Shown piece after piece: positions 5,503 to 52,168 of a stretch of DNA of 64,000 bases (its first letter is position 1; every line of letters starts with the position of its first letter). Position numbers and translations under genes: made by a program. The stretch lies in contig JBJEED010000008.1 of the NCBI GenBank assembly GCA_051872765.1, positions 6,237-70,236 on the forward strand, in the 5' to 3' direction. The notes under the pieces are model-generated. The model had not been told where the DNA came from. It did not search any database and saw only the letters and a program-made list of their open reading frames with translations. This stretch comes from Bacilli bacterium. GTDB taxonomy: Bacteria > Bacillota_I > Bacilli_A > RF39 > UBA660.

Positions 5503-5582
5503 ATTGGATTTAAACTAATATTTAATTATCATATTAAAGCATAATTTTTTAAATAATAATACTTTTATTTAAGTAAGAAGTG

Positions 5583-5591
5583 TGCTATAAT
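5583..5591 (+). promoter_or_regulatory. candidate extended -10 promoter (TGcTATAAT) for the T4SS operon
   Basis: tgctataat lies 35 nt upstream of the ATG at 5626. SD gggag precedes the start. Confidence 0.4.
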
Positions 5592-5625
5592 TTTACATAT
5601 AAAAAGTTGAATAGGGAGTGAAACT

Positions 5626-7599: not shown

Positions 7600-7627
7600 A
7601 ATTTAAGAAAAGAAAGGAAAAAAGAAT

Positions 7628-10276: not shown

Positions 10277-10306
10277 TAGAATCCTCTTTTTTAAAGGAGA
10301 AGTAGT

Positions 10307-13183: not shown

Positions 13184-13197
13184 TATAAGGAGGAAGA

Positions 13198-13989
13198 ATG
13201 AATAAAGAGAAAAAAATTACATTTATGATTATTTTAACTGCAATAGTACTTTTATCTATTATTACTATTCCTCTTATTATCAAATATAATATAGAAAAAG
13301 ATAAAGATAATTTTCCTGAATATAAAGATATCGATATTGATGAAGATTTATTGAGTAATGAGCAAACTTATGAACAAATAAAAAAAGACTTACAAAATGA
13401 TTTCTACTTTAATAAACTTGCAATAATGACAGATTATGATTATAAAGAGTCATCTACTGAAAATTTACAAGACTTATTATGGCATTTTATATTTAATTAT
13501 GAATTATCTAATGACAGTTATTTTTCATATACTGATTCAGCAAATGGTAAATATTGTTTCAGTAAAAAGAACTTAATAAATGCTTTTAATGAATTTTATA
13601 AGTTGGATATTACAGATAAATATAATTATTTAGAAGGTTATTATAAATATGTTTATATTAGTTCAAAAGGATATTGCTTAGATTTTAAAAGGGTATCTGA
13701 TGAGTATGATAATAATATAAAAATAGCTATTGAGAGAATGTCTATTCTTGGTACTACTATAACAACAGATTTATATGTTTATGAATACTATGCAAGTTCT
13801 ACTAATGAAAAATATTATGAAAATTTATTAGGGCAAGCAATTGATAGTAAAGATTATTCCAAAGCTAAGACATTAGTTGAAAATTACTTAAATGGTACAG
13901 TAACTCATAAGCAAATACAATTTAAAAAGAATACTAGAGGAAAATATTTTAAATATCAAATTTTAGTTAGTAAAAAATTAGTTTATTAA
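13198..13989 (+). CDS. N-terminally membrane-anchored protein of the T4SS operon. It occupies the positional slot of VirB8/TcpC-like components, but homology is not established.
   Basis: 263 aa with a single N-terminal TM (ITFMIILTAIVLLSIITIPLII) and SD aaggagg. No diagnostic motif seen. Confidence 0.4.
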   Translation: MNKEKKITFMIILTAIVLLSIITIPLIIKYNIEKDKDNFPEYKDIDIDEDLLSNEQTYEQIKKDLQNDFYFNKLAIMTDYDYKESSTENLQDLLWHFIFNYELSNDSYFSYTDSANGKYCFSKKNLINAFNEFYKLDITDKYNYLEGYYKYVYISSKGYCLDFKRVSDEYDNNIKIAIERMSILGTTITTDLYVYEYYASSTNEKYYENLLGQAIDSKDYSKAKTLVENYLNGTVTHKQIQFKKNTRGKYFKYQILVSKKLVY

Positions 13990-14038
13990 TGAAAAAAAAT
14001 ATATTATATTGTATAATATATTTGTATGAGGTGAGACT

Positions 14039-16279
14039 ATGAAGTTGAAATTTAGAGCAGAGAAAAAAGATTTTATAATATTTCTTATTTTTTGCGGAGT
14101 ATTGTTATACTTAGTTGCTGTAGCTGTAGTTAATTTAAATAGTTTTGCAGTTGATGGAGTATTTAGTGGTTTAAATCCATTACCTGCATTTTCATTAGAT
14201 TTTATATTTTATACATTAGTTGTGTATATATTTGTAATAGCTGCATTAATGCTTGGTTGTTCTTCTTATTTTTTCGAAAGAGAAAAAGGTTTTGGTATAT
14301 CAACTGAACAAAAAAGTAAAAATGATGGTTATTCAAAACTAATGTCAGATAGTGAAATGAAAAAAGATCGTGGTATTGTTAAAATTAAGCTAACTGATGA
14401 TACTTATGAAGGAGGAGGTATTCCATTTATAAATGATGGAGTAAATGCATGGGTAGATAATAGTGGAGAACCACACGCACTTATTATGGGTGCTTCTGGT
14501 TCTGGTAAAACACAATGTATGATGTTTCCTCTTCTTAAAATTCTTGCAAGACATGGAGAAAGTGTTATTGTAACAGACCCTAAAGGTGAATTATATGAAG
14601 AATGTGGAAAGTTATTGCAGGAAAAGGGGTATAAAGTTATATTATTAAACTTCCGTGATCCTAAAGAAGGATCCGCATGGAATCCATTTAGTTATCCATA
14701 TAGAATATATAAAGAAGGAAATGTAGATAAAGCAAATGAATTGTTACAAGACCTTGCCAGTAATATATTAATAGATCCAAATAATAAAGCAGAACCATTT
14801 TGGGAACAAACAGCATCTAACTTTTTCACAGGATTATCACTAGGCTTATTTGATGATGCTCCTGAAGAAGAAGTTAATATTAATAGTATTAATATGATGG
14901 CGGAAGTTGGTGAGGATAGAATTGGTCCATCAACTTATATAAAAGAATATTTTAAAGCTAAGGGAGAGTTATCTCCTGCCTATATAGCAGCAGCATCTTG
15001 TATAAATGCACCTAATGAAACTCGTGGTGGAATTATGTCTACATTTAGAACAAAGACAAGAATTTTCTCATCACAAGAATCATTATCAGAAATGCTTTCA
15101 TATAGTGATTTTGATATTAGGGATATTGGAAAAGAAAAAACTGCAATATTCTTAAAAGTTCACGATGAAAAAACAACTTATCATGCTCTTGCTACTATAT
15201 TTGTAAAACAAGCATATGAAGCATTGATTGCAACGGCTCAAACATTTCCTAATTTAAAACTTCCTTATAGAACTAATTTTATATTAGATGAATTTGCAAA
15301 TATGCCTGCTATTAAAGATATTGGAACAATGATAACTGCATCTCGTTCAAGAAATATTAGATTTAGTTTCGCTATTCAAAACTTTTCACAATTAAATCAA
15401 GTATATGGAAAAGAAGTTGCAGAAACAATTAAAGGTAACTGTGGAAACTTTGTTTATATCATGAGTACAGAATTAGCTGCTTTAGAGGAAATTAGTAAAT
15501 TACTTGGTGATCAAAAACCTGATAAACCTAAAAAAGATGAACCAGCGCCACCAATTAGACCATTATTTACTGTAAGTGATTTACAAGCGTTAAAAGAAAA
15601 TGAAGTTATATTTAATAGATTTAGAAGTATGCCTTATAAAACTAAACTTACTCCAAACTGGAAAATTGACTGGGGAAGAAAATATGAAAAAATGGGATAC
15701 TCTCAAAGGCCACCACATGAAGTAAAGGTTTTTGATTTAAAAGATTTTGTTCAAAAGTTAAAGGATAAACAAGGAGTTCCTGTTGGATCAGGAATGCCTG
15801 GTGGTTTTAGTGCTGGTATGCCAGGAATGGTAGGTATGCCGGGAATGGTAGGTGGAGGTATGCCAAATCCATTTGCTAGTCCAGGGCCTGTACCAGGAGG
15901 TAGAGGATCATCATCTGGAATTGTACCTACGAGTCTTGATGACTATGTTAGAAAACTTGATGAAAAAATTGCTGAGCTAGAAAGAGAAGAAGCAGAAGAA
16001 AAAGCAAGACAAGAAAAAGAAAAGCAAGCATTATCACAAGGTGTAGTAGAGCAAAAAGAAGTTGTGAAAGAAAAGACACAAGAAGAAATACAAAAAGAAA
16101 TGAATGATATATTTAATCATAACTTAAAAGGAATTACAAGTGAAGAGGAAAAAAATACACAACAATCAACTTACGAAAATATAGAGAATCCTAAAGTTAA
16201 TGTTGATGTTGATAGTGTTGTTGTAAAAAACAATAATAATGATGATGATTTCTTTGATGATTTCTTTGGAAGTGAATAA
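14039..16279 (+). CDS. VirD4/TraG-family type IV coupling protein with an unusual C-terminal tail
   Basis: Two N-terminal TMs. Walker A IMGASGSGKTQ, VTDPKGELYE, Walker B NFILDEFANMPAI, SRSRNIRFSFAIQNFSQLNQVYG. The tail contains GMPGGFSAGMPGMVGMPGMVGGGMPNPF, a coiled coil, and ends DDDFFDDFFGSE. Confidence 0.85.
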   Translation: MKLKFRAEKKDFIIFLIFCGVLLYLVAVAVVNLNSFAVDGVFSGLNPLPAFSLDFIFYTLVVYIFVIAALMLGCSSYFFEREKGFGISTEQKSKNDGYSKLMSDSEMKKDRGIVKIKLTDDTYEGGGIPFINDGVNAWVDNSGEPHALIMGASGSGKTQCMMFPLLKILARHGESVIVTDPKGELYEECGKLLQEKGYKVILLNFRDPKEGSAWNPFSYPYRIYKEGNVDKANELLQDLASNILIDPNNKAEPFWEQTASNFFTGLSLGLFDDAPEEEVNINSINMMAEVGEDRIGPSTYIKEYFKAKGELSPAYIAAASCINAPNETRGGIMSTFRTKTRIFSSQESLSEMLSYSDFDIRDIGKEKTAIFLKVHDEKTTYHALATIFVKQAYEALIATAQTFPNLKLPYRTNFILDEFANMPAIKDIGTMITASRSRNIRFSFAIQNFSQLNQVYGKEVAETIKGNCGNFVYIMSTELAALEEISKLLGDQKPDKPKKDEPAPPIRPLFTVSDLQALKENEVIFNRFRSMPYKTKLTPNWKIDWGRKYEKMGYSQRPPHEVKVFDLKDFVQKLKDKQGVPVGSGMPGGFSAGMPGMVGMPGMVGGGMPNPFASPGPVPGGRGSSSGIVPTSLDDYVRKLDEKIAELEREEAEEKARQEKEKQALSQGVVEQKEVVKEKTQEEIQKEMNDIFNHNLKGITSEEEKNTQQSTYENIENPKVNVDVDSVVVKNNNNDDDFFDDFFGSE

Positions 16280-18375: not shown

Positions 18376-20388
18376 TTGACTATGAAGGAAAGAAGAATAT
18401 TAGAAATACTTATTAATATATTATTAGATTTGTTAATTGTTATATTTGGAATTATATTGTTATTCTCAATATATAATAGTGCTCAGACAAAAATATTTGG
18501 CAATGATTATTCAAGTCTATTTGGTTATTCAGTATTTGAAGTACAATCAGGTAGTATGAGAGATAAGATAGATATCGGAGATTGGATTATTGTTAAATAT
18601 AGTACAGATATTAAGTTAGATGATATTATTACTTATAAAAAAGATGATAATTTTATAACTCATAGAGTTGTTGAAGAGTATGTCGATACATATGTAACAA
18701 AGGGAGATGCTAATAACACTAAGGATGAGGCAATAAGCAAGAGTCAAGTCATTGGTAAAGTAGTTAAAATATTACCAAACTTTGGTATTCTTAAAAAAAC
18801 TTTATTTAATCCAATTGTTTTAATAGCATTAATTATCACATTGTATTTATTCAGTTATGTATTTAGAAGTATTAAAAATAGTAAGGATGAAGCAAATATA
18901 AATAAAAATACAAGAACTAAAATAGATGCCCTTATAACAAGATTGTTAAATAAACTTATGTCATTAAAGGACAATAATAAAACTGAATCTAAAAAGAAGA
19001 ATGTATTAGAAGTTGTAGAAGAGAGAACAATAGAATCTAATTCATCTTTTGAAGAGAATAATGATGAAGAAGATTTAGAAGATGATATAGATGAAGAAAT
19101 AGAAATAACACCAATGGATATGGAACAAACAAGATTCTTTAGAATGGTTAGTGTTAATAAAGGTGATGTGGATGGAGTTTATAATAAAAAGAATATAAAA
19201 AAATCAGAAATAATAATTGAAGATTCTAATATTAGTGAAGAAGAGATAGAAAGTAAAACAGAAGCTGAAGTAAAAAAATGCGTAACTGAATTACAAAGCA
19301 AAAAGAAAAAGTTTAAAAATATAATAGATAAGATAATGTATATTAAAGAAGATGAAATTAATTCAATAATTAATGTACTAAATAGAAAAGAAAAGTTCAA
19401 AACAAATGAAAGTACAATAAATGATAGTTTTTTAAAAACATATATATATGCTAGATATTATGGATTATGTGATGATGGAAATTTAGAATATAATTCTAAA
19501 AATATGAATTCTAAGATAAATGAAGTAATAAAAAATAAAGCCACTCAAATGATATCTCAGTATAAAGGTAGTGATAATTTATATGAAGAAAAAGTTGATA
19601 AATATATTAAGTTTTATATGCTTATAAATATTTTAGAAAGTTATAATATTCAGTTTAAAGATATAACTTCTAAAAGAGAAAGTTATAAAAATAAAATATT
19701 ACCAGTACTTAAAAATGAATTGACAAGTGGTCTTGAACTTATGGATATAATTAATAAAATAATTATTATTCAAAAAGTACATTCTAAAATATTAAATTCT
19801 TCATTAGAGAAGTTAAATTCTAATACATTTTCATTGCAAGTAGAGAGTATTGATAAAAATATGTATGCAGTAAATTTAAAGCATAATATTAATTTTAGTA
19901 AGGTTTATAGTGATTATATAGTTGATAAAACTTATTCAGAAGGTGTAATCGCAGAAGATAAAACTATGATAATGATTACTATGTTAATTTCTATAATAGT
20001 TAATGATATGTTAAATAGTAGTTTTAAAAATAAATATTTTATACATGTACCATCTAGTGTATATGAAAAAAGAAATAAACTTGATAGAATATTTGATATG
20101 TTTGATGATGATAGAGGACGTGAGAGTATAATTATTGTTAATGACTATTATGAGGTAATTAAAAATAAAAAAGTTATTAAGGAACTTAAAAAATCAGGCT
20201 ATCATTTTGCAATAGCATTTAGCAAAGAATCTGTCATTAATAGTAAAGATGCTAGCAATATAGTACTTGGAGAATATATAATTGCTAAAAATGAAGTAGT
20301 TGAAAAAATTAAACTTATGGAATTTATTCCAGAAGAATTAAAAGATAAAATAGTTAATGATGATGCTTATTTAAAAATAATAGATTAG
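18376..20388 (+). CDS. SipW-type (S26B, Ser-His) signal peptidase I fused to a ~500-aa cytoplasmic extension of unknown function
   Basis: The N-terminal 165 aa comprise a TM, VQSGSMRD (Ser box), ITHRVV (His box), TKGDANNTKDE and a second TM IVLIALIITLYLFSYVF. An acidic linker and a ~400-aa domain follow. The extreme C-terminus (YFIHVPSS...IIIVNDYYEVIKNKKVIKELKKSGYHFAIAFSKE...GEYIIAKNE) faintly resembles a degenerate EAL-type fold. The start is TTG 18376 or ATG 18382. Confidence 0.7.
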   Translation: MTMKERRILEILINILLDLLIVIFGIILLFSIYNSAQTKIFGNDYSSLFGYSVFEVQSGSMRDKIDIGDWIIVKYSTDIKLDDIITYKKDDNFITHRVVEEYVDTYVTKGDANNTKDEAISKSQVIGKVVKILPNFGILKKTLFNPIVLIALIITLYLFSYVFRSIKNSKDEANINKNTRTKIDALITRLLNKLMSLKDNNKTESKKKNVLEVVEERTIESNSSFEENNDEEDLEDDIDEEIEITPMDMEQTRFFRMVSVNKGDVDGVYNKKNIKKSEIIIEDSNISEEEIESKTEAEVKKCVTELQSKKKKFKNIIDKIMYIKEDEINSIINVLNRKEKFKTNESTINDSFLKTYIYARYYGLCDDGNLEYNSKNMNSKINEVIKNKATQMISQYKGSDNLYEEKVDKYIKFYMLINILESYNIQFKDITSKRESYKNKILPVLKNELTSGLELMDIINKIIIIQKVHSKILNSSLEKLNSNTFSLQVESIDKNMYAVNLKHNINFSKVYSDYIVDKTYSEGVIAEDKTMIMITMLISIIVNDMLNSSFKNKYFIHVPSSVYEKRNKLDRIFDMFDDDRGRESIIIVNDYYEVIKNKKVIKELKKSGYHFAIAFSKESVINSKDASNIVLGEYIIAKNEVVEKIKLMEFIPEELKDKIVNDDAYLKIID

Positions 20389-20401
20389 TGGGAGGTAAAA
20401 T

Positions 20402-21949
20402 ATGAATACATTTTTAAGATTCTTTTATGAATTTATTTCTGTATTCTTTGATGGCTTATTTAGTGGTTTTAAAGGCTTATGGAATGGAATTAAAGAAATG
20501 TTTAAAATTAGTAAGTATGCAAAAATATTAGGAGAATATAAAGAAAGTTTTAATGGTAATGAAAAAGTATTCGTTATTTTATGTATAATCTTCTTAGTAT
20601 TAATAATACTTATGATAGCTATGATTTTATATCTAGTAATCAAGAAGTTAATTAGAAGAGCTACTAATAGAATGAGTAGAGAAGAATTACTTGAAGAAAT
20701 AGCAGGACTTAATGATAAAGTTCGTAAATTAATGAAAGAAAAAGAAGAATTAATGGCTATGAAAGTTTCCCAATTAGGATTAAATCCAGATGATAAAGAA
20801 AGTAATCAAAAAGATAAAAATAAAGATGGAGAAAATGAATCTGAGTCAGAAGAATTTGATAAAGAAACAGCTATTAGATTCCCAACTCTTACATTAATAG
20901 ATGAAGAATATAAGAATTATAAGATTAAAAATTATGAAAATAACTTTACTTTAAAAGAGTTAGTTGATAATTTTAGATGTTTTGCAGCAAGTCAATTAAA
21001 ATTATATTATTCAGAAACATTATTAAGACCTTTTATAGCAGGGCTTGCTTGTGGTAAATTAATTATTTTGCAAGGTATATCTGGTACAGGTAAAACTTCA
21101 CTTGCTTATGCTTGGGGAAAATTTGTATGTAATGATTCTTGTGTTTCTTCTGTAGAACCTTCGTGGAGAGATAAAACTGATTTCTTAGGATATTTTAATG
21201 AACTTACTAAAAAATTTAATGAGACAAGAGCACTTGGTGAGATATATAAAGCAGGATATGATGATAATGTTCATACTATTATATTAGATGAAATGAATTT
21301 AGCTCGTGTTGAATATTATTTTGCTGATTTATTATCAATACTAGAAATGCCAAGGAGAGAAGAATGGTTAGTAGATATTGTTTCTAGTCCATGGCCAAAA
21401 GATCCTAAAAAAATAGAAAAAGGTAAACTTAGATTACCTGGTAATTTATGGTATATTGGTACGATTAATAATGATGATTCAACTTTCCTTGTTACAGATA
21501 AAGTTTATGATAGAGCAATGCCAATAGATATTAATGATAAAGTACCAGCTTTTAAATGTAGAGAACAAGAGGCAGTTCCTATGAATTCTAGTTATTTAGA
21601 ATCATTGTTCCAAGAGGCAATTGATAAATATCCTCTATCTGATAAAACTTTAAACGAAGTTACTAAAATAGATGATTATGTAATTGAGCATTTTAGAATT
21701 GCTTTTGGTAATCGTATTATGAAACAATTAGGTGTATTTACAGCAGTATATGTAGCATGCGGCGGTAAAGAAATGGAAGCAATTGATTACTTTATTGCTA
21801 AGAAAATATTAAGAAAATTTGATCAATTAAGTATTTCTTATATTAGGGATGAAATAGATCCATTCATTTCATTCTTAAATAAAAATTATGGTAAAGGTAC
21901 TATGAAAGAATGCATAGCATTTTTAGAAAGAATTAAGAAAAGTATATAG
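20402..21949 (+). CDS. membrane-anchored McrB-family (COG1401/AAA_5-like) AAA+ NTPase
   Basis: TM VFVILCIIFLVLIILMIAMILYLVI, then coiled coil SREELLEEIAGLNDKVRKLMKEKEELMAMK. McrB-type core: LQGISGTGKTSLA (Walker A, about nt 21074-21100), IILDEMNLARVEYYFADLLSILE, LPGNLWYIGTINNDDSTFLVTDKVYDRA. Confidence 0.75.
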   Translation: MNTFLRFFYEFISVFFDGLFSGFKGLWNGIKEMFKISKYAKILGEYKESFNGNEKVFVILCIIFLVLIILMIAMILYLVIKKLIRRATNRMSREELLEEIAGLNDKVRKLMKEKEELMAMKVSQLGLNPDDKESNQKDKNKDGENESESEEFDKETAIRFPTLTLIDEEYKNYKIKNYENNFTLKELVDNFRCFAASQLKLYYSETLLRPFIAGLACGKLIILQGISGTGKTSLAYAWGKFVCNDSCVSSVEPSWRDKTDFLGYFNELTKKFNETRALGEIYKAGYDDNVHTIILDEMNLARVEYYFADLLSILEMPRREEWLVDIVSSPWPKDPKKIEKGKLRLPGNLWYIGTINNDDSTFLVTDKVYDRAMPIDINDKVPAFKCREQEAVPMNSSYLESLFQEAIDKYPLSDKTLNEVTKIDDYVIEHFRIAFGNRIMKQLGVFTAVYVACGGKEMEAIDYFIAKKILRKFDQLSISYIRDEIDPFISFLNKNYGKGTMKECIAFLERIKKSI

Positions 21950-43300: not shown

Positions 43301-43843
43301 ATGTTTAATAATTATAAAGAAATAGTGACTAAAGCAATAATAGGAAAAGGTAAAAAGACATTTAAAAATGACTATGAAATAACTACAGAAAAAGAAGTTG
43401 ATACTGTTCTTGGTTGTTGGGTAATAAATCATAATTTAAAAGGCGTTAAGGAAGATGATTATATTAAAATAAATGGTAGTTATGATATAAATATTTGGTA
43501 TAGTTATGATAATAATACTAAAACAGATGTTGTTTCTAATAAAATGTTTTATGAAGAGAAGGTAAGAGTTAAATTGAAAGAAAACGCTAGTGAAAGTGAA
43601 GATACTGAAGTTATTATTAGAAGTCTTAAAAATCCAACATGTATAGATGTAAGTAATGAAGATAAAACAATTAAATATACTATATCTAAAGAACTTGGTA
43701 TTGAAATAGTAGGAAATGCTAAAATTAAAATAGCAGTATCTAATGCTGATGAAGATTATGATATAATTGTAGATGAAGATGCTGTTAATAAAGAGATAGA
43801 TAAGCAAGTTAATGTTAATTATTTAGATGATAAAGAAAAGTAA
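43301..43843 (+). CDS. cotE: spore coat morphogenetic protein CotE
   Basis: YKEIVTKAIIGKGKK..., VLGCWVINHNLKG, INGSYDINIWYSYDNNTKTDVV and an acidic C-terminus are collinear with B. subtilis CotE. Length is 180 aa. Confidence 0.85.
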   Translation: MFNNYKEIVTKAIIGKGKKTFKNDYEITTEKEVDTVLGCWVINHNLKGVKEDDYIKINGSYDINIWYSYDNNTKTDVVSNKMFYEEKVRVKLKENASESEDTEVIIRSLKNPTCIDVSNEDKTIKYTISKELGIEIVGNAKIKIAVSNADEDYDIIVDEDAVNKEIDKQVNVNYLDDKEK

Positions 43844-43864
43844 TCAATTTTTGATTATTTTTAT
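43841..43864 (+). terminator. probable terminator after cotE
   Basis: taatcaa (43841-43847) pairs with ttgatta (43851-43857), followed by a T-run. Confidence 0.5.
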
Positions 43865-43972
43865 TTAATAATATAATTCACTTAAATAAAAATAAATATT
43901 TTTGAAAATACTTATATTAAGTTAATTATTTATTATTTTTTATGATATAATTTATGCTAGGAGAATGATTGT

Positions 43973-46255
43973 ATGAATGATAGACTAAATGCTTTTAAAA
44001 TAAAATTTTATGAATATTGTGTTACTTATTATAATATGTGTTTAAGTACAAAAGATAGTACTTATTTACAATATTATAAAGAATTATTAAGAATATATAA
44101 TGAAATAAATGAATCTATCGTAACATATAGTCAACTAAAAAAATATATTAGTGATTTAGAGAAAAAGAGAAATATGAATTTAATAACATCATTTGATATA
44201 GTAAATGATGTTATTAAAATATTTGATTCTATAAATATTAATCATCAACAATGTATTATTATAAAGAATTTAATATTCGATTTAGCTAATAATTATTATC
44301 GTATATGTATAAAAAGTAAAAATAAAAAAGATATTAATAATTATAAATTTATTAAGAGTATATATAATCATATAAAAGAATTAAATGATGAAGAGTTTAT
44401 TGAATATTTTAAATATTTAAAGGAAAAAAAGTTTTATAATATAGATGAAAAAAATATTATTTTAGAAATATTAAAAATATATGATAGTGTTTTAAATAAT
44501 AATATAAAAGAAAATAATAAAATAAATCATACTTCAAAAAATTCTAATATATACAATAAGAATTTAGCAGATAAAATAACAATATTATCCAAAACAAATG
44601 TGAAATCTCGTCTGTCAGAGTATTTAAATAATAGAACTAAGGTTTTATCTTCTTTTAAATATTCTATGAATTATGCTAGTTATTATGTTTGTTATATTAT
44701 TGATCATTATACGGTAAAAAGTATGTTAGAGGGGAATACATTAGATGAGATACAAAAAACTTATTTAAAAGAAATAAATAGACAGATGTTAAAAGATCCT
44801 TATTTATTCTTTAGTTTACCTTTAAGTAACTTATCAAAGGAAAAACTATTATTATTTAAAAGATATATGCCGGATATTGATATTATATTATCTAATTGTA
44901 AAAAACTATTAAATGAAGCAAAAACAATAAATGAAAAAATTAGTTTATCATTTCATGTAAGTGATAATGAATTAGATAAATTATTTAAATTTTTAACTTA
45001 TTACATTTCTTATAACAGAATAAAAGATGAATTTAATTATGAAATATTGATAAATTATTTATTTAAAAAGAATTATTTAAATTATTATGAGATATCTTTC
45101 TTAATTAAATATTTTGGATATAAAAAGTGTGTTGAAGAGAATCTTACTGATGTTGATATTAATGTTGCATGTTGTGATGAAAAGAAAGGACAGAGTGTTC
45201 TAGGAAGTTATATTGGTGGGCTAGTAATTGTTAATAAAGATCATGCAATTGGAACAACATTTGTTAATAATACTTTAAATAACTCATCAACACCACTATT
45301 AATCAAAAACAAAAAAGTAATATATGAAGGTTCAACAATACTTGGAACTTTATATCATGAACTTACTCATGCTTTACAAGAAAGAGATTATATAAATCAT
45401 AGTAATACATTTAGAGAATATATTTGGTCTATAAAAAACATAGCAGTTGAATCTGATCCAAAATATTTTACTAGAAATTATAGATTTTCTGAGTGTGAGG
45501 CTGATGCTGATCAAAATATGTTTTTAGAGTTTAAAAAAGTAGCAGAAACTTATTTGAAATCTCAAAATTTATCAACAAGAGCAGAAAGTCATAGAAAAAA
45601 ATTTGAAAATAGGTTATTATTTAGTCCAAAAGCAGATTCATATGGGTTTAAACAAATTACAGGTAAATATGAAAAAGAAATTGCTGATAATTTTTTTAGA
45701 AAGAATCCAAAAGAGTTAGAAAAATATCCAATATTTAAGCAGTTTTATGACAATAGAGGAATACCTTTTAGTTTAGTAACAATGTTATCAAATACATTAT
45801 TTAATGATGAAGGATATTATTATAACCAGTTAGTTGGGAAAATATATCAAAAAGAGAATATTAGCAAAGAAGATTTCTTGAGTAAAAATATGAATCAAAG
45901 ATTGACAATTATAAAAAACATAAATACTATATTAAGATATATTAATAAAAGGCTTAAGAAAGCAAGTAGATTGTTAGAAAGTAAAGAAAATGAACTTATT
46001 TCGTTTCAAACGCAAGGAGTTGATGAAACAATACTAATTAACAATAATATATTAATTGATTTAAAAATAGGTAATATTCTTATTAATTGGCATAATAATA
46101 TGCTTAAAGTTGACCCAAGTATTAATGATAAAATTAGTTCTATAGACAGTAGTATAAATATTGATTTTAATTATGAAACTAATATTTTTAGAATTTACGA
46201 AGAAAGAATTAAAAAATTAATAGGAGAAGATATTGAGAAAGGAATAAAATTATGA
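43973..46255 (+). CDS. 760-aa HExxH (gluzincin-like) protein of unknown function, paralog A
   Basis: LGTLYHELTHALQE (HELTH at 45356-45370), with SECEADAD about 45 aa downstream. No signal peptide. The long N-terminal region is predicted helical. It is clearly paralogous to 46438-48630. An extended -10 tgatataat lies at 43943-43951. Confidence 0.7.
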   Translation: MNDRLNAFKIKFYEYCVTYYNMCLSTKDSTYLQYYKELLRIYNEINESIVTYSQLKKYISDLEKKRNMNLITSFDIVNDVIKIFDSININHQQCIIIKNLIFDLANNYYRICIKSKNKKDINNYKFIKSIYNHIKELNDEEFIEYFKYLKEKKFYNIDEKNIILEILKIYDSVLNNNIKENNKINHTSKNSNIYNKNLADKITILSKTNVKSRLSEYLNNRTKVLSSFKYSMNYASYYVCYIIDHYTVKSMLEGNTLDEIQKTYLKEINRQMLKDPYLFFSLPLSNLSKEKLLLFKRYMPDIDIILSNCKKLLNEAKTINEKISLSFHVSDNELDKLFKFLTYYISYNRIKDEFNYEILINYLFKKNYLNYYEISFLIKYFGYKKCVEENLTDVDINVACCDEKKGQSVLGSYIGGLVIVNKDHAIGTTFVNNTLNNSSTPLLIKNKKVIYEGSTILGTLYHELTHALQERDYINHSNTFREYIWSIKNIAVESDPKYFTRNYRFSECEADADQNMFLEFKKVAETYLKSQNLSTRAESHRKKFENRLLFSPKADSYGFKQITGKYEKEIADNFFRKNPKELEKYPIFKQFYDNRGIPFSLVTMLSNTLFNDEGYYYNQLVGKIYQKENISKEDFLSKNMNQRLTIIKNINTILRYINKRLKKASRLLESKENELISFQTQGVDETILINNNILIDLKIGNILINWHNNMLKVDPSINDKISSIDSSINIDFNYETNIFRIYEERIKKLIGEDIEKGIKL

Positions 46256-46434
46256 ATAATGGTGAAGAAGTTTTAGATGATGTCATATCATTTGATGATG
46301 TAATAGATGTTTTTACAAATGATGATTTAGAAAATTTAGAATCATTTGATGATATTAATAATTATCAATTATTTGATGATAATATAGAACAATTAGAAGA
46401 ATTTTTATCAAGAGAAGACGATGAAGAGTGGTAA
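46252..46434 (+). CDS. 60-aa hyper-acidic protein with three FDD motifs
   Basis: MNNGEEVLDDVISFDDVIDVFTNDDLENLESFDDINNYQLFDDNIEQLEEFLSREDDEEW. ATGA overlap with the upstream gene. The next ATG follows its stop after 3 nt. Confidence 0.6.
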   Translation: MNNGEEVLDDVISFDDVIDVFTNDDLENLESFDDINNYQLFDDNIEQLEEFLSREDDEEW

Positions 46435-46437
46435 TTT

Positions 46438-48630
46438 ATGTTTAATAGTTTAGATGAGTACAAAAAAAGTATTCAAAAGTTATATATATATTATAAAGAA
46501 GTATCTAGTTATAATGATGAATATAAACAAGATTATGATACTTGTTTAAATATATTTAATGATATTAATAAGTTATCTAGTTTTAGTGAACTTGAAAACT
46601 ATATGAGTAAATTAAGTAATAAAGATAATAATATTATATCTGAAATATGCATTAGATTTTCCCCATATAGTAGTCTTGAAAATTTAAAAAAGAAAATATA
46701 TTTAGCTATAAAAAATATTAAATCTAGATATCCAAATATAAATAAAAAAGATATTAATAAAGCTAAATTTATGATTAATGTATTTAATGATATTTGCTAT
46801 TGTGATACAGAATCGATTACTGATTATTTTAATAATTTAAAAAGAAATCTAAGTAAATATAATTTAGAAGAAAAAAAGATTGTTTATGAATTATTAGGAA
46901 TGTATAAGGAGTATTATCCTTCAAAAAATATATCTACATTATATAATGAAAAACTAGCAAATAGTATAAATAAAATTAAAAATATAGATTTTAGTAAAAA
47001 AATTAAGACTATATTACCAAAAAGGACTAAATCATTATCAGATCCTAATTATAGTATATTTTATAATGATATATTGTTTTGTAAAAAAATAGATCATAAA
47101 GTTACAATGGATATGGTTAATGATAATAAACTTAATGAATGGGAAATAGATTATTTAACTCAGATAAATAATCAGATGGTATCAGACCCATACTTATTTT
47201 TAGCTTTACCGCTTAGTAATTTAAGCATTTCAATTTTAAAGAAATATAGTAAATATATGCCTAATATTGAAGAGGTATATAATAGGGCTTCTATGCTATA
47301 TAAGCAAGCAATTCTTCTTAATGATAGATATGTAAATAAAGAAAAATTGAGTGAAGAAGAAGAGAATATATTATTTAAATTTCTAGACTATTATATATCT
47401 AAAAATAGACTTGATAGAGATTTTAATTATGAGTTATATATTTATTATTTAATGAATAAAAAATCTACTTTATCATTTCATGAAGCCTCTTTCTTAACAA
47501 AGTATTTAGGATATAAAAAATGTGCTGATGAAAATATAGAAAGTATAGATATATCATTTTGTAGATATGATAAAAATATATTAAATGAATCCAGTGATAC
47601 TTGTGGGTTATATTCAAACGGAATTGTAACTATTAATAAAAGGCTACTAAAAGATTGTGTAATTAATGAAGAAGATAAAACTACTTTATATGTACTAAAA
47701 GTATTATTTCATGAATTAAGACATGCTTTGCAAGAAAAAGAAAAAAATGATAAGACTAATAGTCAATTGTGTTATGATGATATAATATTTAATATAATAA
47801 ATAGATATAATATGAAAGATTATGATATAAATTATTCTGAGTATTATAATGAATTAGATGCTAATAAAGCATCATATGATGATGTACTTGAGATATTATT
47901 AAGGTATAGAAATAATGATGAAATGAATATGTTATGGGCTCATGGTAGAGCAAATTCAAATGCAAATAGGGAAATGTTTACAAATAGAAAAAGAAAGTCT
48001 ATGTTTAAAAAAATAATTAGACCAACTGCTATTCATGAAAAGGAATATACAGATAGATTTTTTGCAAAAAATCCTAAGAAATTAGAAGACTTTCCATTAT
48101 TTAAACAATTATATGATGAAAAAGGTAATCCTTATAATTTAGATACTTTCTTAACAATTTATCATAAAGGAAAGCAACAATATTATTATAATTTTTTTGT
48201 AGCTTTAATATATGAAGGACAAACCATTAATAAAGAAAGTATAAAAAATAAAACAAACACAGATAAAATTAATATGATTAGAAATATGTGTAATTTATTT
48301 TCAATTTTATTAGATAGATTATTTATATCTAGAGAAATAATATATAACTCTGATAGTATTAAAGAATATGGAAGCAAAAAAATAATTTGTGATAATATTC
48401 TTATAGACATTAAAATTGGTAAAAAAATAATGTTATGGTATAAAAATATATTAGAAGATTCAAAAGAATTAAAAGATATGATTTCTAAATTAGATAAAGA
48501 TTTATTAGATGATTTTAATACAAAATGTATGTGGTTTGATAAAATAATAAAAGAGTTTGAAGAAAAAGGTGTCATATTGAAAGGTAATGCTATAAATATC
48601 GTATATTCTTTATTTAATATAGTTAAATAA
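46438..48630 (+). CDS. 730-aa HExxH (gluzincin-like) protein of unknown function, paralog B
   Basis: LKVLFHELRHALQE (HELRH at 47710-47724), with YNELDANK about 45 aa downstream. Blocks shared with paralog A include DPYLF..LPLSNLS, LFKFL.YYIS.NR...FNYE, KY.GYKKC..EN, FF.KNPK.LE.-P.FKQ.YD..G.P, and NILIDxKIG. Confidence 0.7.
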   Translation: MFNSLDEYKKSIQKLYIYYKEVSSYNDEYKQDYDTCLNIFNDINKLSSFSELENYMSKLSNKDNNIISEICIRFSPYSSLENLKKKIYLAIKNIKSRYPNINKKDINKAKFMINVFNDICYCDTESITDYFNNLKRNLSKYNLEEKKIVYELLGMYKEYYPSKNISTLYNEKLANSINKIKNIDFSKKIKTILPKRTKSLSDPNYSIFYNDILFCKKIDHKVTMDMVNDNKLNEWEIDYLTQINNQMVSDPYLFLALPLSNLSISILKKYSKYMPNIEEVYNRASMLYKQAILLNDRYVNKEKLSEEEENILFKFLDYYISKNRLDRDFNYELYIYYLMNKKSTLSFHEASFLTKYLGYKKCADENIESIDISFCRYDKNILNESSDTCGLYSNGIVTINKRLLKDCVINEEDKTTLYVLKVLFHELRHALQEKEKNDKTNSQLCYDDIIFNIINRYNMKDYDINYSEYYNELDANKASYDDVLEILLRYRNNDEMNMLWAHGRANSNANREMFTNRKRKSMFKKIIRPTAIHEKEYTDRFFAKNPKKLEDFPLFKQLYDEKGNPYNLDTFLTIYHKGKQQYYYNFFVALIYEGQTINKESIKNKTNTDKINMIRNMCNLFSILLDRLFISREIIYNSDSIKEYGSKKIICDNILIDIKIGKKIMLWYKNILEDSKELKDMISKLDKDLLDDFNTKCMWFDKIIKEFEEKGVILKGNAINIVYSLFNIVK

Positions 48631-48684: not shown

Positions 48685-50340
48685 ATGCAAAGATTTAAAC
48701 AAATTATTATTGTATTTTTTGGTATATTACTTCTTAGTGGTTGTACATTTAATAGTCAAAATAATATGACTATAAATAAAGATGGGAAAATGATATATCA
48801 AATGTTAATTTCTTTTGATAAAGAAACTATATCAAAAATGATAATATCTGAAGATGAAAATGTAGAAGTTAATGAAGAAATAATGTATGAATATATAGAT
48901 AATGCTTTTGATAGTTCTAGTTTTGAGGGTTTAAAAAGAGAAAACTATTCAGATGAAAATTACATAGGATTTAAATATTTATATGAAATAGATAATATAG
49001 ATAAAATATCTGACAAAAATATAGATGAAGTAAATTTAAATGTATTTAATTCTAATAAGAAAATTACAGATATGAAATTATTTAAAAAAGATGAAAAAGA
49101 ATATTCTGCAAACTTCTCATTTAAATTAGATGAAGATATTGATCCTCAAAATATAACATTTAATACAAATTTTAGTGTTACACTTCCATATAAAGCACTT
49201 TCACATAATGCAAAAAGTATTACAGATAATGGAAAAACATTAAATTGGATAATAGATGTAACTAAAGATGATAATATTAAATTTACATTTTCTTTAACTA
49301 ATGTAAATTTAATAGAAGAAAGTTCTTTAATAATAGTATCAATTATAATATTGGCAGTTGTAATATTAAGTATATATAAGATTAAAGGTAAGAATAAAAA
49401 GAAAAATAAAATATTTTATATATTGTCTATATTAATAGAAATAATTATTATTGGAACTATTATATTTATTTATAATAAACCATCATATATATCATCTCTA
49501 ATCAAGCCAACAACTAAAGGATTAAGTAGTAGTTTGATTGAATATAAAGATAATATAATAACAGTATCATATAATAAATTAAATGATACCATGAATTCAC
49601 TTAATAAATTATTGACATATACAGAATCAACAGATGAACTATATACAAATATAGTTGATAATATGATGAAAAATGATGAACAAATAAAAATGTATGATTC
49701 TTCTGAAAACCAAAAAGTATTAGAAACAACAATATCAAAAGAGCAGGCAAAGGAATTAATTAAAAGTGAAGAAATAGAAAATGATATACTTTTAAAAATA
49801 ATATTTAATGATGTTGACAAAGATAAAGTTATAGAAGAAATAGATTATAAAATTAATAGAGAACAAATAATTAGAGAAAAAATAGTGGCTACTGCATTAG
49901 CAGAAGTTGGAAAAACGGGTGAAACATATTGGGAATGGTATTTAGGACATAGTTCAACGTTTATGGAATATTGTGCAGCGTTTGTTAGTTGGGTTGCTGA
50001 TAAGAATGGACAACTTGATAATGGAAATGTTCCAAAATTTGCATGGGTAAGCGCAGGAGTTGATTATTATAAGGATAAAGGTTGGTTTAAATATAATAAA
50101 GATTATGATCCAAAGCCTGGAGATATAGTATTCTTTAATTGGAATAGTGCTAATGACTTGATTGATCATGTTGCATTTGTAGAAAAATATGAAAATGGTT
50201 ATGTATATACTATTGAAGGGAACGTTGGTGGAAATTCAAGCATGTCGCGAGCAGAAAAAGCAAAAGTAAGAAAAGTAGTACAAAGAAAATATAAAAAGAA
50301 TAGTTTACATTTATATGGATATGGAGTTCCTGAATATTAA
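48685..50340 (+). CDS. lipoprotein with two internal TM segments and a C-terminal CHAP (cysteine/histidine amidohydrolase-peptidase) domain
   Basis: Lipobox LLLSGC. TMs at about aa 214-232 and 243-265. CHAP region MEYCAAFVSWVADKNG...PKPGDIVFFNW...DHVAFVEKYENGYVYTIEGN. Confidence 0.7.
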   Translation: MQRFKQIIIVFFGILLLSGCTFNSQNNMTINKDGKMIYQMLISFDKETISKMIISEDENVEVNEEIMYEYIDNAFDSSSFEGLKRENYSDENYIGFKYLYEIDNIDKISDKNIDEVNLNVFNSNKKITDMKLFKKDEKEYSANFSFKLDEDIDPQNITFNTNFSVTLPYKALSHNAKSITDNGKTLNWIIDVTKDDNIKFTFSLTNVNLIEESSLIIVSIIILAVVILSIYKIKGKNKKKNKIFYILSILIEIIIIGTIIFIYNKPSYISSLIKPTTKGLSSSLIEYKDNIITVSYNKLNDTMNSLNKLLTYTESTDELYTNIVDNMMKNDEQIKMYDSSENQKVLETTISKEQAKELIKSEEIENDILLKIIFNDVDKDKVIEEIDYKINREQIIREKIVATALAEVGKTGETYWEWYLGHSSTFMEYCAAFVSWVADKNGQLDNGNVPKFAWVSAGVDYYKDKGWFKYNKDYDPKPGDIVFFNWNSANDLIDHVAFVEKYENGYVYTIEGNVGGNSSMSRAEKAKVRKVVQRKYKKNSLHLYGYGVPEY

Positions 50341-50467: not shown

Positions 50468-51160
50468 ATGATTTATACAAAAGAAGTAGAAAATATGTGT
50501 AAGGTAGCTAAAGGTGTAGAACATGGACCTGCTCCTATTCCAGAAGATGGCAAATGGGTTAAGGCTCGTGAAATAAAAGATATAAGTGGACTTACACATG
50601 GTATTGGATGGTGTGCTCCACAACAAGGTGCATGTAAGTTAACTTTAAATATAAAAGAAGGAATAATACAAGAAGCATTAGTTGAGACAATTGGATGTAG
50701 TGGTATGACTCATAGTGCTGCTATGGCAGGAGAAATATTAGTTGGAAAAACTATTTTAGAAGCATTAAATACTGATTTAGTTTGTGATGCAATTAATACA
50801 GCAATGAGAGAATTATTTTTACAAATAGTATATGGAAGAAGTCAATCAGCATTTTCTGAGGGTGGACTTGCAATTGGAGCTGGTCTTGAAGATTTAGGTA
50901 AAGGAACTAGGAGTCAAGTTGGAACAATTTATTCAACATTAGAAAAAGGACCTAGGTATTTAGAATTAGCAGAGGGATATATTGTTGAAGTTGGTCTTGA
51001 TGAAAAAGATGAAATAATTGGATATAAATATGTAAATATGGGTAAGATGATGGAAAATATTAAAAAAGGAATGGATGCTCTTGAAGCTATTGAAGCAGCT
51101 AGTGGAACTTATGGTAGATTTGATGAAGCTGTTAAGAAAATAGATCCAAGACATGAGTAG
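50468..51160 (+). CDS. NifU/IscU-N-terminal-like protein (usual partner of GGGtGRT proteins)
   Basis: GWCAPQQGACKLTLNIKEGIIQEALVETIGCSGMTHSAAMAGEILVGKTILEAL resembles the IscU/NifU scaffold fold with Cys residues. SD aggagg. Confidence 0.55.
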   Translation: MIYTKEVENMCKVAKGVEHGPAPIPEDGKWVKAREIKDISGLTHGIGWCAPQQGACKLTLNIKEGIIQEALVETIGCSGMTHSAAMAGEILVGKTILEALNTDLVCDAINTAMRELFLQIVYGRSQSAFSEGGLAIGAGLEDLGKGTRSQVGTIYSTLEKGPRYLELAEGYIVEVGLDEKDEIIGYKYVNMGKMMENIKKGMDALEAIEAASGTYGRFDEAVKKIDPRHE

Positions 51161-51169
51161 GAGGATATA

Positions 51170-52168
51170 ATGGCATTATTTGAAAGTTATGATAGAAGAA
51201 TTAAACAAATAGAAGAAGTAATGAAAAAATATGGTATTAAAGATTTTGATGATGCAAGAAAAATATGTACTGATAAAGGATTTGATCCATATGAAATAGT
51301 TAAAAGTATCCAACCAATTTGTTTTGAAAATGCTTGTTGGGCTTATACATTAGGTGCAGCAATAGCAATTAAATCAAATAGAATAAAAGCAAGTGAAGCT
51401 GCTGTAGCTATAGGAGAGGGATTACAAGCCTTTTGTATTCCAGGAAGTGTAGCAGATGATAGAAAAGTTGGTCTTGGTCATGGAAATCTTGCATCTATGT
51501 TATTATCAGAAGATACTAAATGTTTTGCATTTCTTGCAGGACATGAATCATTTGCGGCAGCAGAAGGAGCTATTGGAATTGCAAAAAGTGCTAATAAAGT
51601 TAGAAAGGAACCTTTAAGAGTAATTTTAAATGGTCTTGGAAAAGATGCAGCTCAAATAATATCTAGAATAAATGGCTTTACTTATGTTAAAACAGATTTT
51701 GATTTCTTTACAGGAAAAGTAAATGTAATTGAGAGAATTCCTTACTCTAATACAGAAAGAAGTAAGGTTAATTGTTATGGATGCAACGATGTAAGAGAAG
51801 GTGTCGCTATAATGCATATGGAAGGTGTTGATGTATCAATAACTGGTAATTCAACAAATCCTACTCGTTTTCAACATCCAGTAGCTGGAACATATAAAAA
51901 AGAATGTATTGAAAGAGGCAAAAAATATTTTTCAGTTGCATCTGGTGGAGGTACTGGAAGAACACTTCATCCAGATAATATGGCCGCAGGACCTGCTTCT
52001 TATGGTATGACAGATACTATGGGAAGAATGCATAGTGATGCTCAATTTGCTGGGTCATCAAGTGTACCTGCACATGTTGAGATGATGGGACTTATTGGTA
52101 TGGGAAATAATCCAATGGTAGGAGCAACTGTATCAGTATCAGTAGCGGTAGAGGAACATTGCAATTAA
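51170..52168 (+). CDS. GGGtGRT-family protein (function unknown)
   Basis: Contains the eponymous SGGGTGRTLHPDNMAAGPASYGMTDTMGRMH motif. SD aggagg. Confidence 0.8.
   Translation: MALFESYDRRIKQIEEVMKKYGIKDFDDARKICTDKGFDPYEIVKSIQPICFENACWAYTLGAAIAIKSNRIKASEAAVAIGEGLQAFCIPGSVADDRKVGLGHGNLASMLLSEDTKCFAFLAGHESFAAAEGAIGIAKSANKVRKEPLRVILNGLGKDAAQIISRINGFTYVKTDFDFFTGKVNVIERIPYSNTERSKVNCYGCNDVREGVAIMHMEGVDVSITGNSTNPTRFQHPVAGTYKKECIERGKKYFSVASGGGTGRTLHPDNMAAGPASYGMTDTMGRMHSDAQFAGSSSVPAHVEMMGLIGMGNNPMVGATVSVSVAVEEHCN

Follow-up and report, generated by a model that had tools for sequence, protein, structure and literature searches.

Organization of the locus

Downstream of the spore coat gene cotE, the window (the whole 64-kb stretch of DNA that was analysed) carries three genes, termed A, S and B, that are real, coupled in translation and subject to purifying selection. 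The genes, their neighbours and the features discussed below are as follows.

43301..43843, + strand: cotE, outer spore coat morphogenetic protein (Pfam CotE, E = 4.2e-43)
43838..43867, + strand: hairpin and U-rich tract over the cotE stop codon (-5.3 kcal/mol, z = -2.5)
43922..43951, + strand: putative sigma-A-type promoter of A-S-B (-35-like element and extended -10)
43959..43963, + strand: AGGAG resembling a Shine-Dalgarno site, 9 nt ahead of the start codon of A
43973-46255, + strand: gene A, 760-aa ORF, zincin-like
43973..44503, + strand: lineage-specific helical extension at the N-terminus of A (residues 1-177); a disordered linker comes next (residues 178-189, pLDDT < 50)
45083..45772, + strand: zincin-like core of A (residues ~371-600), delimited from the model and the conserved columns
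45356..45370, + strand: HELTH of A (residues 462-466), invariant in 61/61 members
45497..45499, + strand: E509 of A, within N-Y-x5-E-x-[DE]-A
46252-46434, + strand: gene S, 60-aa hyper-acidic ORF
46438-48630, + strand: gene B, 730-aa ORF, paralog of A
47710-47724, + strand: HELRH of B (residues 425-429)
47851-47853, + strand: E472 of B, predicted Glu ligand
48685..50340, + strand: CHAP-domain lipoprotein (Pfam CHAP, E = 5e-14)

The three ORFs have exactly the coordinates, strand and lengths given by the first-pass annotation, which had also placed them between cotE and a CHAP lipoprotein gene, as the Pfam matches bear out, and had proposed their translational coupling. Both junctions were read directly in the sequence: the start codon of S lies over the stop codon of A in an ATGA overlap (46252-46255), and S is separated from B by a 3-nt gap (TAA-ttt-ATG, 46432-46440). 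The trio is best read as a chromosomal operon of two paralogous zincin-like enzymes and a small acidic partner.

cotE, which is also the upstream neighbour in the related loci L002 and L003, is a transcription unit separate from A-S-B. The hairpin at 43838..43867, missed by a G+C-biased terminator scan, is probably a weak intrinsic terminator of cotE, and the divergent L003 has a hairpin of different sequence with a U-run at the corresponding position (-7.9 kcal/mol, z = -3.0). Ahead of gene A lie a -35-like TTAATT (43922-27), an 18-nt spacer and the extended -10 TGATATAAT (43943-51). This last element, already described as sigma-A-like in the first-pass annotation, is present and kept in the orthologous loci. 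Its sequence is unchanged between the window, L002 and L004 and also in the distant L003; there, TTGATT stands 17 nt upstream of TATAAT. Similar elements precede the relatives in L014 and L016. TGnTATAAT occurs just 15 times on both strands of the 64-kb window. Judged from these motifs, the 43922..43951 segment would act as a sigma-A-type promoter, and in no lineage did the upstream sequence contain a sigma-E/K-like CATAnnnTA element. The CHAP gene, whose product has a lipoprotein-type N-terminus (...LLLSGC), shows its own TGCTATAAT upstream when the sequence is read; L003 has no called counterpart, and L001 has no room for one. It is probably a lineage-specific neighbour lying outside the A-S-B module.

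A and B are paralogs with a helical architecture

The A and B proteins align end to end (BLASTP, 33% identity, 52% positives, E = 7e-93), in keeping with the full-length collinear paralogy noted at first reading. The A protein is identical to the NCBI entry 'MAG: hypothetical protein ACI33S_01065 [Bacilli bacterium]'. The dN/dS ratio is 0.24 for A (against L002) and 0.15 for B, and both proteins are basic (pI 8.6-9.0). As the first-pass annotation had stated for secretion signals, a 19-residue Kyte-Doolittle scan found no signal peptide, nor any transmembrane segment, in either protein, peak hydropathy reaching 1.27 in A and 1.34 in B versus 2.89 in the CHAP lipoprotein. A and B are thus best regarded as cytoplasmic proteins. 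The A-S-B duplication was seen solely in the cotE-linked clade; gene A retains the family's ancestral insertion ahead of HExxH, which B has lost. In most members of the family, which measure 550-620 aa, the match to the profile begins only at position ~173.

AlphaFold2 gave confident models for full-length A (pLDDT 91.8, pTM 0.77) and for the B core domain (pLDDT 89.9, pTM 0.88). In both, a small sheet is followed by the HExxH helix and then by a helix bearing the later Glu, amid large helical domains; the A core consists of a backing helix, a 3-stranded sheet and these two helices. The region of A before HExxH is modelled as helical, as had been predicted, save for a small beta-sheet at residues 395-421. 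Foldseek returned no significant PDB or viral match. All matches to the core had E >= 1, and among these weak matches the M1 gluzincins were the sole recurring enzyme class (81-166 aligned residues, rmsd 3-6 A), while the full-length model matched helical-repeat scaffolds only. The helical domains around the core are without a match to any known fold.

Conservation in this rare family centres on the HExxH...E signature

Each protein contains a single HExxH, HELTH at residue 462 of A and HELRH at residue 425 of B, and further on the E-x-D-A (E509/D511/A512 in A; E472/D474/A475 in B) that the first-pass annotation had pointed out. A HExxH arose by chance in 45/5000 and 20/5000 composition-preserving shuffles (<1%). 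In an alignment of 61 divergent members, whose mean column identity is 13%, six residues are invariant (H462, E463, H466, Q469, E509 and G596); with G411, Y499, N502, Y503, A512 and P579 they make up the invariant or near-invariant columns of the core, which also bears a conserved NPxxLxxYP...G motif. E509 is found in 61/61 members, N502 in 58, Y503 in 56 and A512 in 57, while position 511 is Asp in 50 and Glu in 8. The distance from the second His to the Glu is 38-50 residues, with a mode of 42. HExxH...E is thus the most conserved feature of the family, the putative ligand and base residues never varying. By analogy with known zincins, H462 and H466 are predicted zinc ligands and E463 the predicted catalytic base, and E509 is the predicted third ligand. 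Because the motif is invariant and the confident models set it within a zincin-like order of sheet, helix and helix, the A/B family is best read as having a gluzincin-type active site.

Searches of Pfam, NCBIfam, PHROG, PADLOC and PDB sequences gave no significant match for A, S or B, and no characterised peptidase was matched significantly in sequence or structure. Exhaustive searching with HMMER recovered only 91 related clusters from 1.8 billion, most of them 550-620 aa long. When 39 members were scanned against Pfam, every match lay below the gathering threshold and all were of metallopeptidase type: DUF3920 in 11/39, DUF6782 ('putative metallopeptidase') in 9/39, and single weak matches to Tox-MPTase3 (E = 6e-4), WLM and SprT-like (E about 0.04). 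The chromosomal neighbourhoods of the relatives are of housekeeping type.

The small protein S, of 60 aa, contains 23 D+E and 1 K+R (net charge -22) and is unique among the 49 small ORFs of the window (40-70 aa, six frames) in having a net charge <= -10. Purifying selection acts on it (dN/dS 0.13). In 5/10 independent genomic contexts the large gene has a small acidic ORF immediately after it, homologous or analogous ORFs being present directly downstream in L001, L002, L003, L006, L007, L011-13 and L014/15, and absent beside the most distant members (L008-L010, L016-L018). Outside the cotE-linked clade the likeness between S proteins is mostly compositional, and S matched no described inhibitor or immunity family. 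This selection and recurrence support the acidic partner suggested in the first-pass annotation: S is a real, conserved partner gene of the enzyme, and is best read as regulating or assisting it.

Proposed function and alternative explanations

Overall, we lean modestly towards A and B representing a previously undescribed, rare family of the zincin superfamily from uncultured low-GC gut Bacilli, cytoplasmic, of gluzincin type and provided with an acidic partner. The two His of HExxHxxQ and the Glu ~42 residues downstream (N-Y-x5-E-x-D-A) would bind one zinc ion, the HExxH Glu would serve as general base in gluzincin chemistry, and the substrate would be held as an added strand of the 3-stranded sheet that precedes this helix of the active site. 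The large helical domains on either side of the core would limit access to the site, and peptides or unfolded segments would therefore be the likely substrates. S (43-61 residues across the family), being translationally coupled, would most likely bind the basic enzyme (pI about 9) stoichiometrically and act as inhibitor, chaperone or adaptor. The ancestral module would have been one enzyme plus S, the enzyme having been duplicated and an N-terminal helical extension gained in the cotE-linked clade.

The genomic setting raises the question of a sporulation-specific protease, working within the mother cell on proteins of the coat or elsewhere in the spore in functional connection with CotE, with S as a timing inhibitor. 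In the window, L002, L003 and L004 the module comes straight after cotE and is oriented like it; in another lineage it lies between gpr (Peptidase_A25) and spoIIP, and in a third directly after cse60. The hosts with enough context all appear to be spore formers (gerA, cotE, spoIIP, spoIIM). This idea is nevertheless weakened by the hairpin and U-run after cotE in both lineages and by the conserved sigma-A-type promoter of the module itself, as well as by the lack of upstream CATAnnnTA. Moreover, 7/10 independent contexts have no adjacent sporulation gene, and three or more of ten would be expected with P about 0.18 at an estimated ~15% chance per locus. Since A and B have no signal peptide, access to the cortex or spore surface is unlikely, and a protease role there, as offered by the first-pass annotation, is only weakly suggested by the synteny (3/10 contexts, by estimate no more than chance would give). 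We consider a sporulation-specific protease unlikely. The effector or toxin role offered by the first-pass annotation fares worse. A conflict system (polymorphic-toxin-like, toxin-antitoxin or anti-phage), with a metallopeptidase toxin and S as immunity protein or antitoxin, would suit the toxin-immunity-like layout of a big enzyme and a tightly coupled small gene, the one weak Tox-MPTase3 match and the rare, patchy distribution. However, neither a secretion nor a trafficking domain was found, nor LXG, RHS or a signal sequence; the zincin core lies in the middle of the modelled protein and does not form a C-terminal cassette; PADLOC gave no significant match, and phage records, plasmid records and viral contigs yielded no member of the family. 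The module occupies a syntenic, vertically inherited position across genomes diverged to about 36% identity, dN/dS of A, S and B resembles that of neighbouring housekeeping genes, distant members are without a partner and B has none of its own, all of which makes such a system quite improbable.

Two further explanations concern the nature of the protein itself. About 70% of it consists of helical domains without known fold, and the full-length model resembles helical-repeat scaffolds, as would befit a non-catalytic structural or adaptor protein with HExxH as a metal-binding or structural relic; yet pseudo-enzymes usually lose catalytic or ligand residues, and here all 61 members keep both the HExxH Glu and the third-ligand Glu while nearly all else varies, making a relic very unlikely. 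We give still less weight to a SprT/Wss1-like protease acting on DNA-protein crosslinks with S as a DNA-mimic regulator. The weak SprT-like and WLM matches speak for it, the enzyme is basic, S is as small and as charged as DNA-mimic proteins typically are, and PolC, RecD2 and DNA ligase genes occur in some neighbourhoods, but these neighbourhoods are heterogeneous, no DNA-binding domain was detected, and the two matches come from single sequences.

Comparison with known systems

The favoured zincin family resembles the gluzincins (MEROPS clan MA(E), including thermolysin M4 and the M1 enzymes aminopeptidase N and ERAP) in having a HExxH helix after a small beta-sheet and, in the A and B models, a subsequent helix whose Glu is probably the third zinc ligand; its E-x-[DE]-A context recalls the E-x-x-x-D of thermolysin. 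It differs in its His-to-Glu spacing (38-50 versus about 18-20 residues in M1 and M4), the lack of a GxMEN motif, the lack of a significant sequence or fold match, and flanking helical domains unrelated to anything detected. The first-pass annotation had suggested M34-type enzymes (anthrax lethal factor, PPEP-1/Zmp1). Only the spacing is similar, about 44 residues in lethal factor versus a mode of 42 here, and M34 enzymes are secreted whereas A and B have no signal peptide. Pfam and PDB-sequence searches linked A and B neither to lethal factor nor to PPEP-type enzymes, the Foldseek matches listed include no structure of either kind, and no MEROPS family matched; M34 membership is not supported.

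DUF6782, DUF3920, Tox-MPTase3, SprT-like and WLM share the HExxH helix in recurrent sub-threshold matches (best E about 1e-3); the one viewed in detail spans about 36 residues round the motif. These small zincins measure about 130-240 aa, in contrast to the conserved 550-620-aa architecture of the A/B family. Protease and inhibitor or immunity pairs likewise have a tightly coupled small ORF directly after a protease-like gene, whereas S is hyper-acidic, 43-61 aa long and unmatched by any described family, its interaction being putative. The M3B oligoendopeptidase F (PepF) is a cytoplasmic, largely helical enzyme of about 600 aa with HExxH and a Glu. Although Pfam Peptidase_M3 does not match the A/B family, and the Foldseek matches listed include no structure of M3, M2 or M32 type, the family shares with PepF and other large helical oligopeptidases its size, cytoplasmic location, helical make-up and HExxH plus Glu. 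A PepF-type oligopeptidase, with access limited to peptides, is thus a plausible functional analogy for A and B.

Organisation of the gene trio and its surroundings

The module consists of three coupled genes, which lie exactly at the positions claimed for them in the first-pass annotation:

43973-46255, + strand, A, ORF of 760 aa (zincin-like)
46252-46434, + strand, S, ORF of 60 aa (hyper-acidic)
46438-48630, + strand, B, ORF of 730 aa (paralog of A)

The paralogy of A and B proposed there was borne out by a full-length alignment (33% identity; E = 7e-93), and each protein does carry one HExxH, at residue 462 in A and residue 425 in B, a single such motif being expected from composition alone in <1% of shuffles. 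The DNA itself shows that A and S overlap by ATGA and that S is joined to B through TAA-ttt-ATG, and the flanks are those initially described, with cotE upstream (Pfam E = 4e-43) and a CHAP-domain lipoprotein gene downstream. Further upstream of cotE, on the opposite strand, stand a gerA-type germinant receptor operon and htpG. The G+C content of the trio region is 20-23%, and A is a 100% match to a hypothetical protein of the NCBI "MAG: Bacilli bacterium".

Downstream of the module, a gene pair at 50468-52168 (+ strand) encodes a NifU-N-like protein (230 aa) and a GGGtGRT-family protein (Pfam E = 2e-195); this pair is kept downstream of the module in two loci of relatives, L002 and L003, and apparently in a third, L001. 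The CHAP lipoprotein gene (48685-50340), which has its own TGCTATAAT element, is interposed between the module and this pair only in the window, in L002 and probably in L004. Elsewhere, the window carries at 5626-16279 (+ strand) a cluster of conjugation and type IV secretion genes, probably an integrated conjugative element:

5626-7599, + strand, TrbL-like
8486-10276, + strand, VirB4/TraG-type P-loop ATPase
10307-13183, + strand, 958-aa ORF with no Pfam match
14039-16279, + strand, type IV coupling protein

Between these genes (5.6-16.3 kb) and the trio stand uvrB, relA and other housekeeping genes. The sole Rfam match in the window is a SAM riboswitch (RF00162; 27086-27169, + strand; 64.4 bits, E = 1e-12), no tRNA genes were found in it, and two large neighbouring ORFs (670 and 515 aa; 18376-21949, + strand) gave no Pfam match at E <= 1e-5.

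Family membership and sequence signature

Searches of A, S and B against Pfam, NCBIfam, PHROGs, PADLOC and PDB sequences returned nothing significant; the PADLOC defence models gave only non-significant matches at E = 0.012, which composition may explain, and what came back from PDB sequences, whether a single protein or a profile served as query, was confined to designed helical proteins or low-complexity matches. A word-indexed protein search, swamped by low-complexity words, recovered near-identical proteins and one 43% relative only. By an exhaustive HMMER search, in which a five-sequence profile was run against 1.84 billion cluster representatives, 91 representatives were matched, 25 of them at E < 1e-10. 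One ortholog and one partial relative were all that a scan of the genome collection yielded, and the family was not found in JGI metagenomes or IMG/VR contigs by pattern scans, nor in phage and plasmid records by tblastn; literature searches found no description of it.

Most members are 550-620 aa long, and their profile match begins only at position ~173, so that A and B each start with a lineage-specific extension of ~177 residues. Within A, residues ~30-170 (window 43973-44503, + strand) show by eye a repeated helical motif (YKELLRIYNEINES...YSQLKKYISDLEKK versus YKFIKSIYNHIKEL...FIEYFKYLKEK), hinting that the N-terminal extension arose by internal duplication.

In the alignment of 61 sequences (mean column identity 13%; numbering according to A), the invariant residues are H462, E463, H466, Q469, E509 and G596, besides Met1, and the columns of G411, Y499, N502, Y503, A512 and P579 are near-invariant. 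The signature of the family therefore reads HExxHxxQ, followed after 38-50 residues (mode 42) by a Glu inside N-Y-x5-E-x-[DE]-A. The HExxH and the downstream Glu singled out in the first-pass annotation are thus kept among homologs (H462, E463, H466 and E509 in 61/61), and this centring of conservation on two His and the Glu, with the catalytic Glu retained, favours an active gluzincin-type metal site over a relic motif. E509 is the predicted third zinc ligand.

A short basic Gly-Arg C-terminus (...GMGRR, ...GRGR, ...YGRNR, ...VGRR, ...YGRKS, ...GRGGR) is found in many single-copy members, among them P0011-P0013, P0017, P0018, P0039, P0050, P0057 and P0088; the tandem copies of A and B in the cotE-linked clade, the lineage with the duplicated module downstream of cotE, lack it. 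It might be a tag for docking or degradation, or touch the acidic partner. One member, P0026 (636 aa), has a hydrophobic C-terminal stretch, ...GFQLLALTSLISSIIIAVIGIIFVILV, which suggests a tail-anchored membrane variant.

The acidic partner

S contains 23 Asp+Glu and 1 Lys+Arg (net -22), while A and B are basic (pI 8.96 and 8.63). Among the 49 ORFs of 40-70 aa found in six frames of the window, it alone has a net charge <= -10. Comparison with L002, an ortholog locus at 87-91%, gave the same dN/dS of 0.13 for S and cotE, against 0.15 for B and 0.24 for A; this constraint, together with its unique charge, marks S as a real gene. The table lists relatives in which the large gene is likewise followed by a small acidic ORF that overlaps its stop or abuts on it.

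Table. Small acidic ORFs accompanying family genes in relatives (locus; length of S; net charge)
L001; 61 aa; -21
L002; 60 aa; -24
L003; 47 aa; -17
L006; 48 aa; -10
L007; 43 aa; -11
L011-13; 48 aa; -10
L014/15; 59 aa; -11

Within the cotE-linked clade the S proteins are clearly homologous (57-59% identity) and have in common the motif DxFTxxDL...YxLxDxDIExLEEFLSxEDxExW; that of L006 shares an ...LxEF[IL]S... segment, the similarity beyond it being compositional only. No small acidic partner ORF accompanies the most distant members (L008-10 and L016-18), and a Rosetta-stone test detected no acidic tail fused to the members devoid of S. Most plausibly, S, predicted to be co-produced with the basic enzyme in stoichiometric amounts, attaches to it and serves as inhibitor, chaperone or adaptor; S may stand for a mode of cytoplasmic protease control that has not been described.

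Evolution of the tandem pair

Outside the cotE-linked clade, the common state is a single-copy enzyme with S, and all tandem copies fall into one clade (100% bootstrap). The A-type proteins retain an insertion before the HExxH (TSFxNNxL...EG) that is common to the single-copy relatives and has been lost from the B-type proteins. In L003 (8001-11744), A (645 aa) and B (556 aa) group together with 100% bootstrap and not with the A and B of the window, which points to gene conversion or to an independent duplication at the same site; there, the N-terminal extension is partial in A and absent from B. The best-supported course is that enzyme plus S was the ancestral unit, the duplication and the N-terminal extension having been gained in this lineage.

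Probable promoter and terminator, and genomic context

In this AT-rich DNA, a generic promoter scan was uninformative (78 sites found versus 84 expected) and a generic terminator scan missed the AT-rich hairpin after cotE. The cotE-to-A spacer was analysed by phylogenetic footprinting of the window, L002, L004 and the distant L003 (proteins ~36% identical). Right after the cotE stop, a hairpin followed by a U-run persists with stem sequences that differ between the two lineages (-5.3 and -7.9 kcal/mol; z = -2.5 and -3.0, respectively), and TGATATAAT is invariant in the spacer of all four. The sigma-A-like extended -10 read earlier at this place, a predicted candidate promoter, is conserved across the same four loci; a -35-like TTGATT lies 17 nt upstream of TATAAT in L003, and a TTAATT at 18 nt in the window. 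Counting both strands, the 64-kb window has just 15 copies of TGnTATAAT. L014 and L016 likewise have TGnTAnAAT-type elements ahead of the family gene, and by eye the upstream sequences of L008 and L011 show good -35/-10 pairs. No lineage showed the sigma-E/K-like CATAnnnTA upstream. It seems from these footprints that a housekeeping-type promoter belongs to the module itself and that cotE ends in a separate terminator.

Ten independent neighbourhoods were compared, and a sporulation gene adjoins the family gene in three of them (cotE, gpr/spoIIP and cse60). The other seven have none, being marked by PolC/AspRS, queA-miaA/NUDIX-RecD2, htpG/rhomboid, a MurJ-like gene/PHP, RNase HII, RNase J/FtsY and radical SAM/GH31. 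At a chance rate of ~15% per locus, three or more of ten would be met with an estimated probability of ~0.18, so the synteny of the module with sporulation genes is suggestive only. In L014 (5947-9861) and L015 (1880-5775), the enzyme and the acidic ORF stand between gpr (germination protease, Peptidase_A25) and spoIIP, two genes that are adjacent in Bacillus subtilis; a TGTTATAAT element lies there 26 nt upstream of the enzyme start, near the end of gpr. In L011, the genes on either side of the family gene (5153-6903 and 9163-9996) encode three acidic paralogs of ~270 aa; their N-termini (...GATFAYFSAN...) seem to resemble those of TasA/camelysin-type exported proteins, with no Pfam match recorded.

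Predicted structure and superfamily placement

A was modelled with AlphaFold2 from the 61-sequence alignment (pLDDT 91.8, pTM 0.77). The model is all-helical except for a small sheet (395-400, 411-414, 417-421) and a hairpin in the insertion of A; the sheet directly precedes the HExxH helix (453-474), E509 is at the start of helix 507-528, and a disordered linker (178-189) separates the N-terminal extension from the remainder. A model of the B core (residues 330-600; 39 sequences; pLDDT 89.9, pTM 0.88) displays the same order of elements. Metallopeptidase catalytic domains of the zincin topology consist of a backing helix, a sheet, an active-site helix and a Glu helix, and the order of elements predicted in both models fits it.

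With Foldseek, the full-length model retrieved from PDB and BFVD only helical-repeat scaffolds (TM <= 0.2), and the core model nothing significant from PDB (best E about 1). Among the weak core matches, the sole recurring enzyme class was that of the M1 gluzincin aminopeptidases (PSA, PepN, ERAP1/2, IRAP, APN), over 81-166 columns with an rmsd of 3-6 A and a probability of 0.2-0.4; these matches of a predicted model are consistent with a zincin core without amounting to proof. Pfam scans of all 61 members and of 39 isolated cores gave sub-threshold zincin DUFs only: under relaxed settings DUF3920 was matched by 11/39 cores, DUF6782 ("putative metallopeptidase") by 9/39, in one member over ~36 residues around the motif, and Tox-MPTase3, WLM and SprT-like once each, all below threshold. 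Any relationship to DUF6782 or DUF3920 would be distant at most. A significant match to a known characterised family, the outcome that the first-pass annotation had named as counting against its proposal, came from none of Pfam, PDB and Foldseek.

Overall, the best-supported placement of A, B and their relatives is as a new family of predicted cytoplasmic metallopeptidases, of the gluzincin type within the zincin superfamily (Pfam clan Peptidase_MA).

Alternative readings and significance

A sporulation-specific protease draws some support from synteny and is weakened by the promoter and terminator evidence; membership of the cotE operon was rejected in view of the terminator-like hairpin seen in two lineages, the module's own conserved sigma-A-type -10 and the lack of CATAnnnTA, which also gives no support to a sporulation-sigma promoter. 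The layout of the genes would also suit a toxin-immunity or defence pair, in that a small downstream cognate gene is a feature of effector-immunity systems and S overlaps the stop of A; B and the distant members have no such gene. This reading is, however, contradicted by the lack of trafficking domains (signal peptide, LXG and RHS are absent, and there is no Pfam domain), by vertical synteny and ordinary purifying selection, by the failure to find the family in the phage, plasmid and viral collections searched, and by a zincin core that is central rather than a C-terminal cassette. A secreted effector was likewise rejected, neither A nor B having a signal peptide or a trafficking/secretion domain, and the effector or toxin with a cognate inhibitor put forward at first is not supported for a vertically inherited protein with a central core and no secretion domain.

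The invariance of the catalytic residues argues against a non-catalytic scaffold. A DNA-linked protease of SprT-like type, its partner mimicking DNA, is a speculative reading. We also consider it improbable that A, S and B form a new kind of self-regulated cytoplasmic protease complex, in which the two zincins, built on helical domains without known fold, would be gated by S as a mimic of substrate or nucleic acid and would carry out a specific processing step; if so, uncultured low-GC gut Bacilli could use it to mature spore proteins, for example, or to strip bound proteins from DNA.

HExxH families that lack a description are not rare, and we regard A and B as representing a new family, with a partner that is also new, of a superfamily that is very well known. 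The family would add to the zincin metallopeptidases a confidently predicted structure of which ~70% is without match to a solved fold, and would give testable access to the "dark matter" genes of spore-forming gut Bacilli that are uncultured and very low in G+C. Being rare, narrow in taxonomic range and not suggestive of a phenotype or substrate, it is of moderate broader impact; experiments on it would be reasonable in view of the confident and largely unmatched model, the repeated presence of an acidic partner and the narrow distribution.

Comparison with known metallopeptidases

The M34-type assignment (anthrax lethal factor/PPEP), initially proposed from the motif spacing, was abandoned: no Pfam, PDB-sequence or listed Foldseek match places the family there, and the M34 enzymes are secreted by means of a signal peptide, whereas the N-termini of A and B are not hydrophobic (maximum KD19 1.3) and show no signal peptide. 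In contrast to the M1 aminopeptidases, A and B lack GxMEN, and the spacing is 38-50 residues instead of HExxH-x18-E. As to M3 (PepF/thimet-like), Pfam gave no Peptidase_M3 match, and none of the listed Foldseek matches was an M3 structure. On these defining features the family stands apart from M34, M1 and M3, while it is predicted to work in the same way as the gluzincins.
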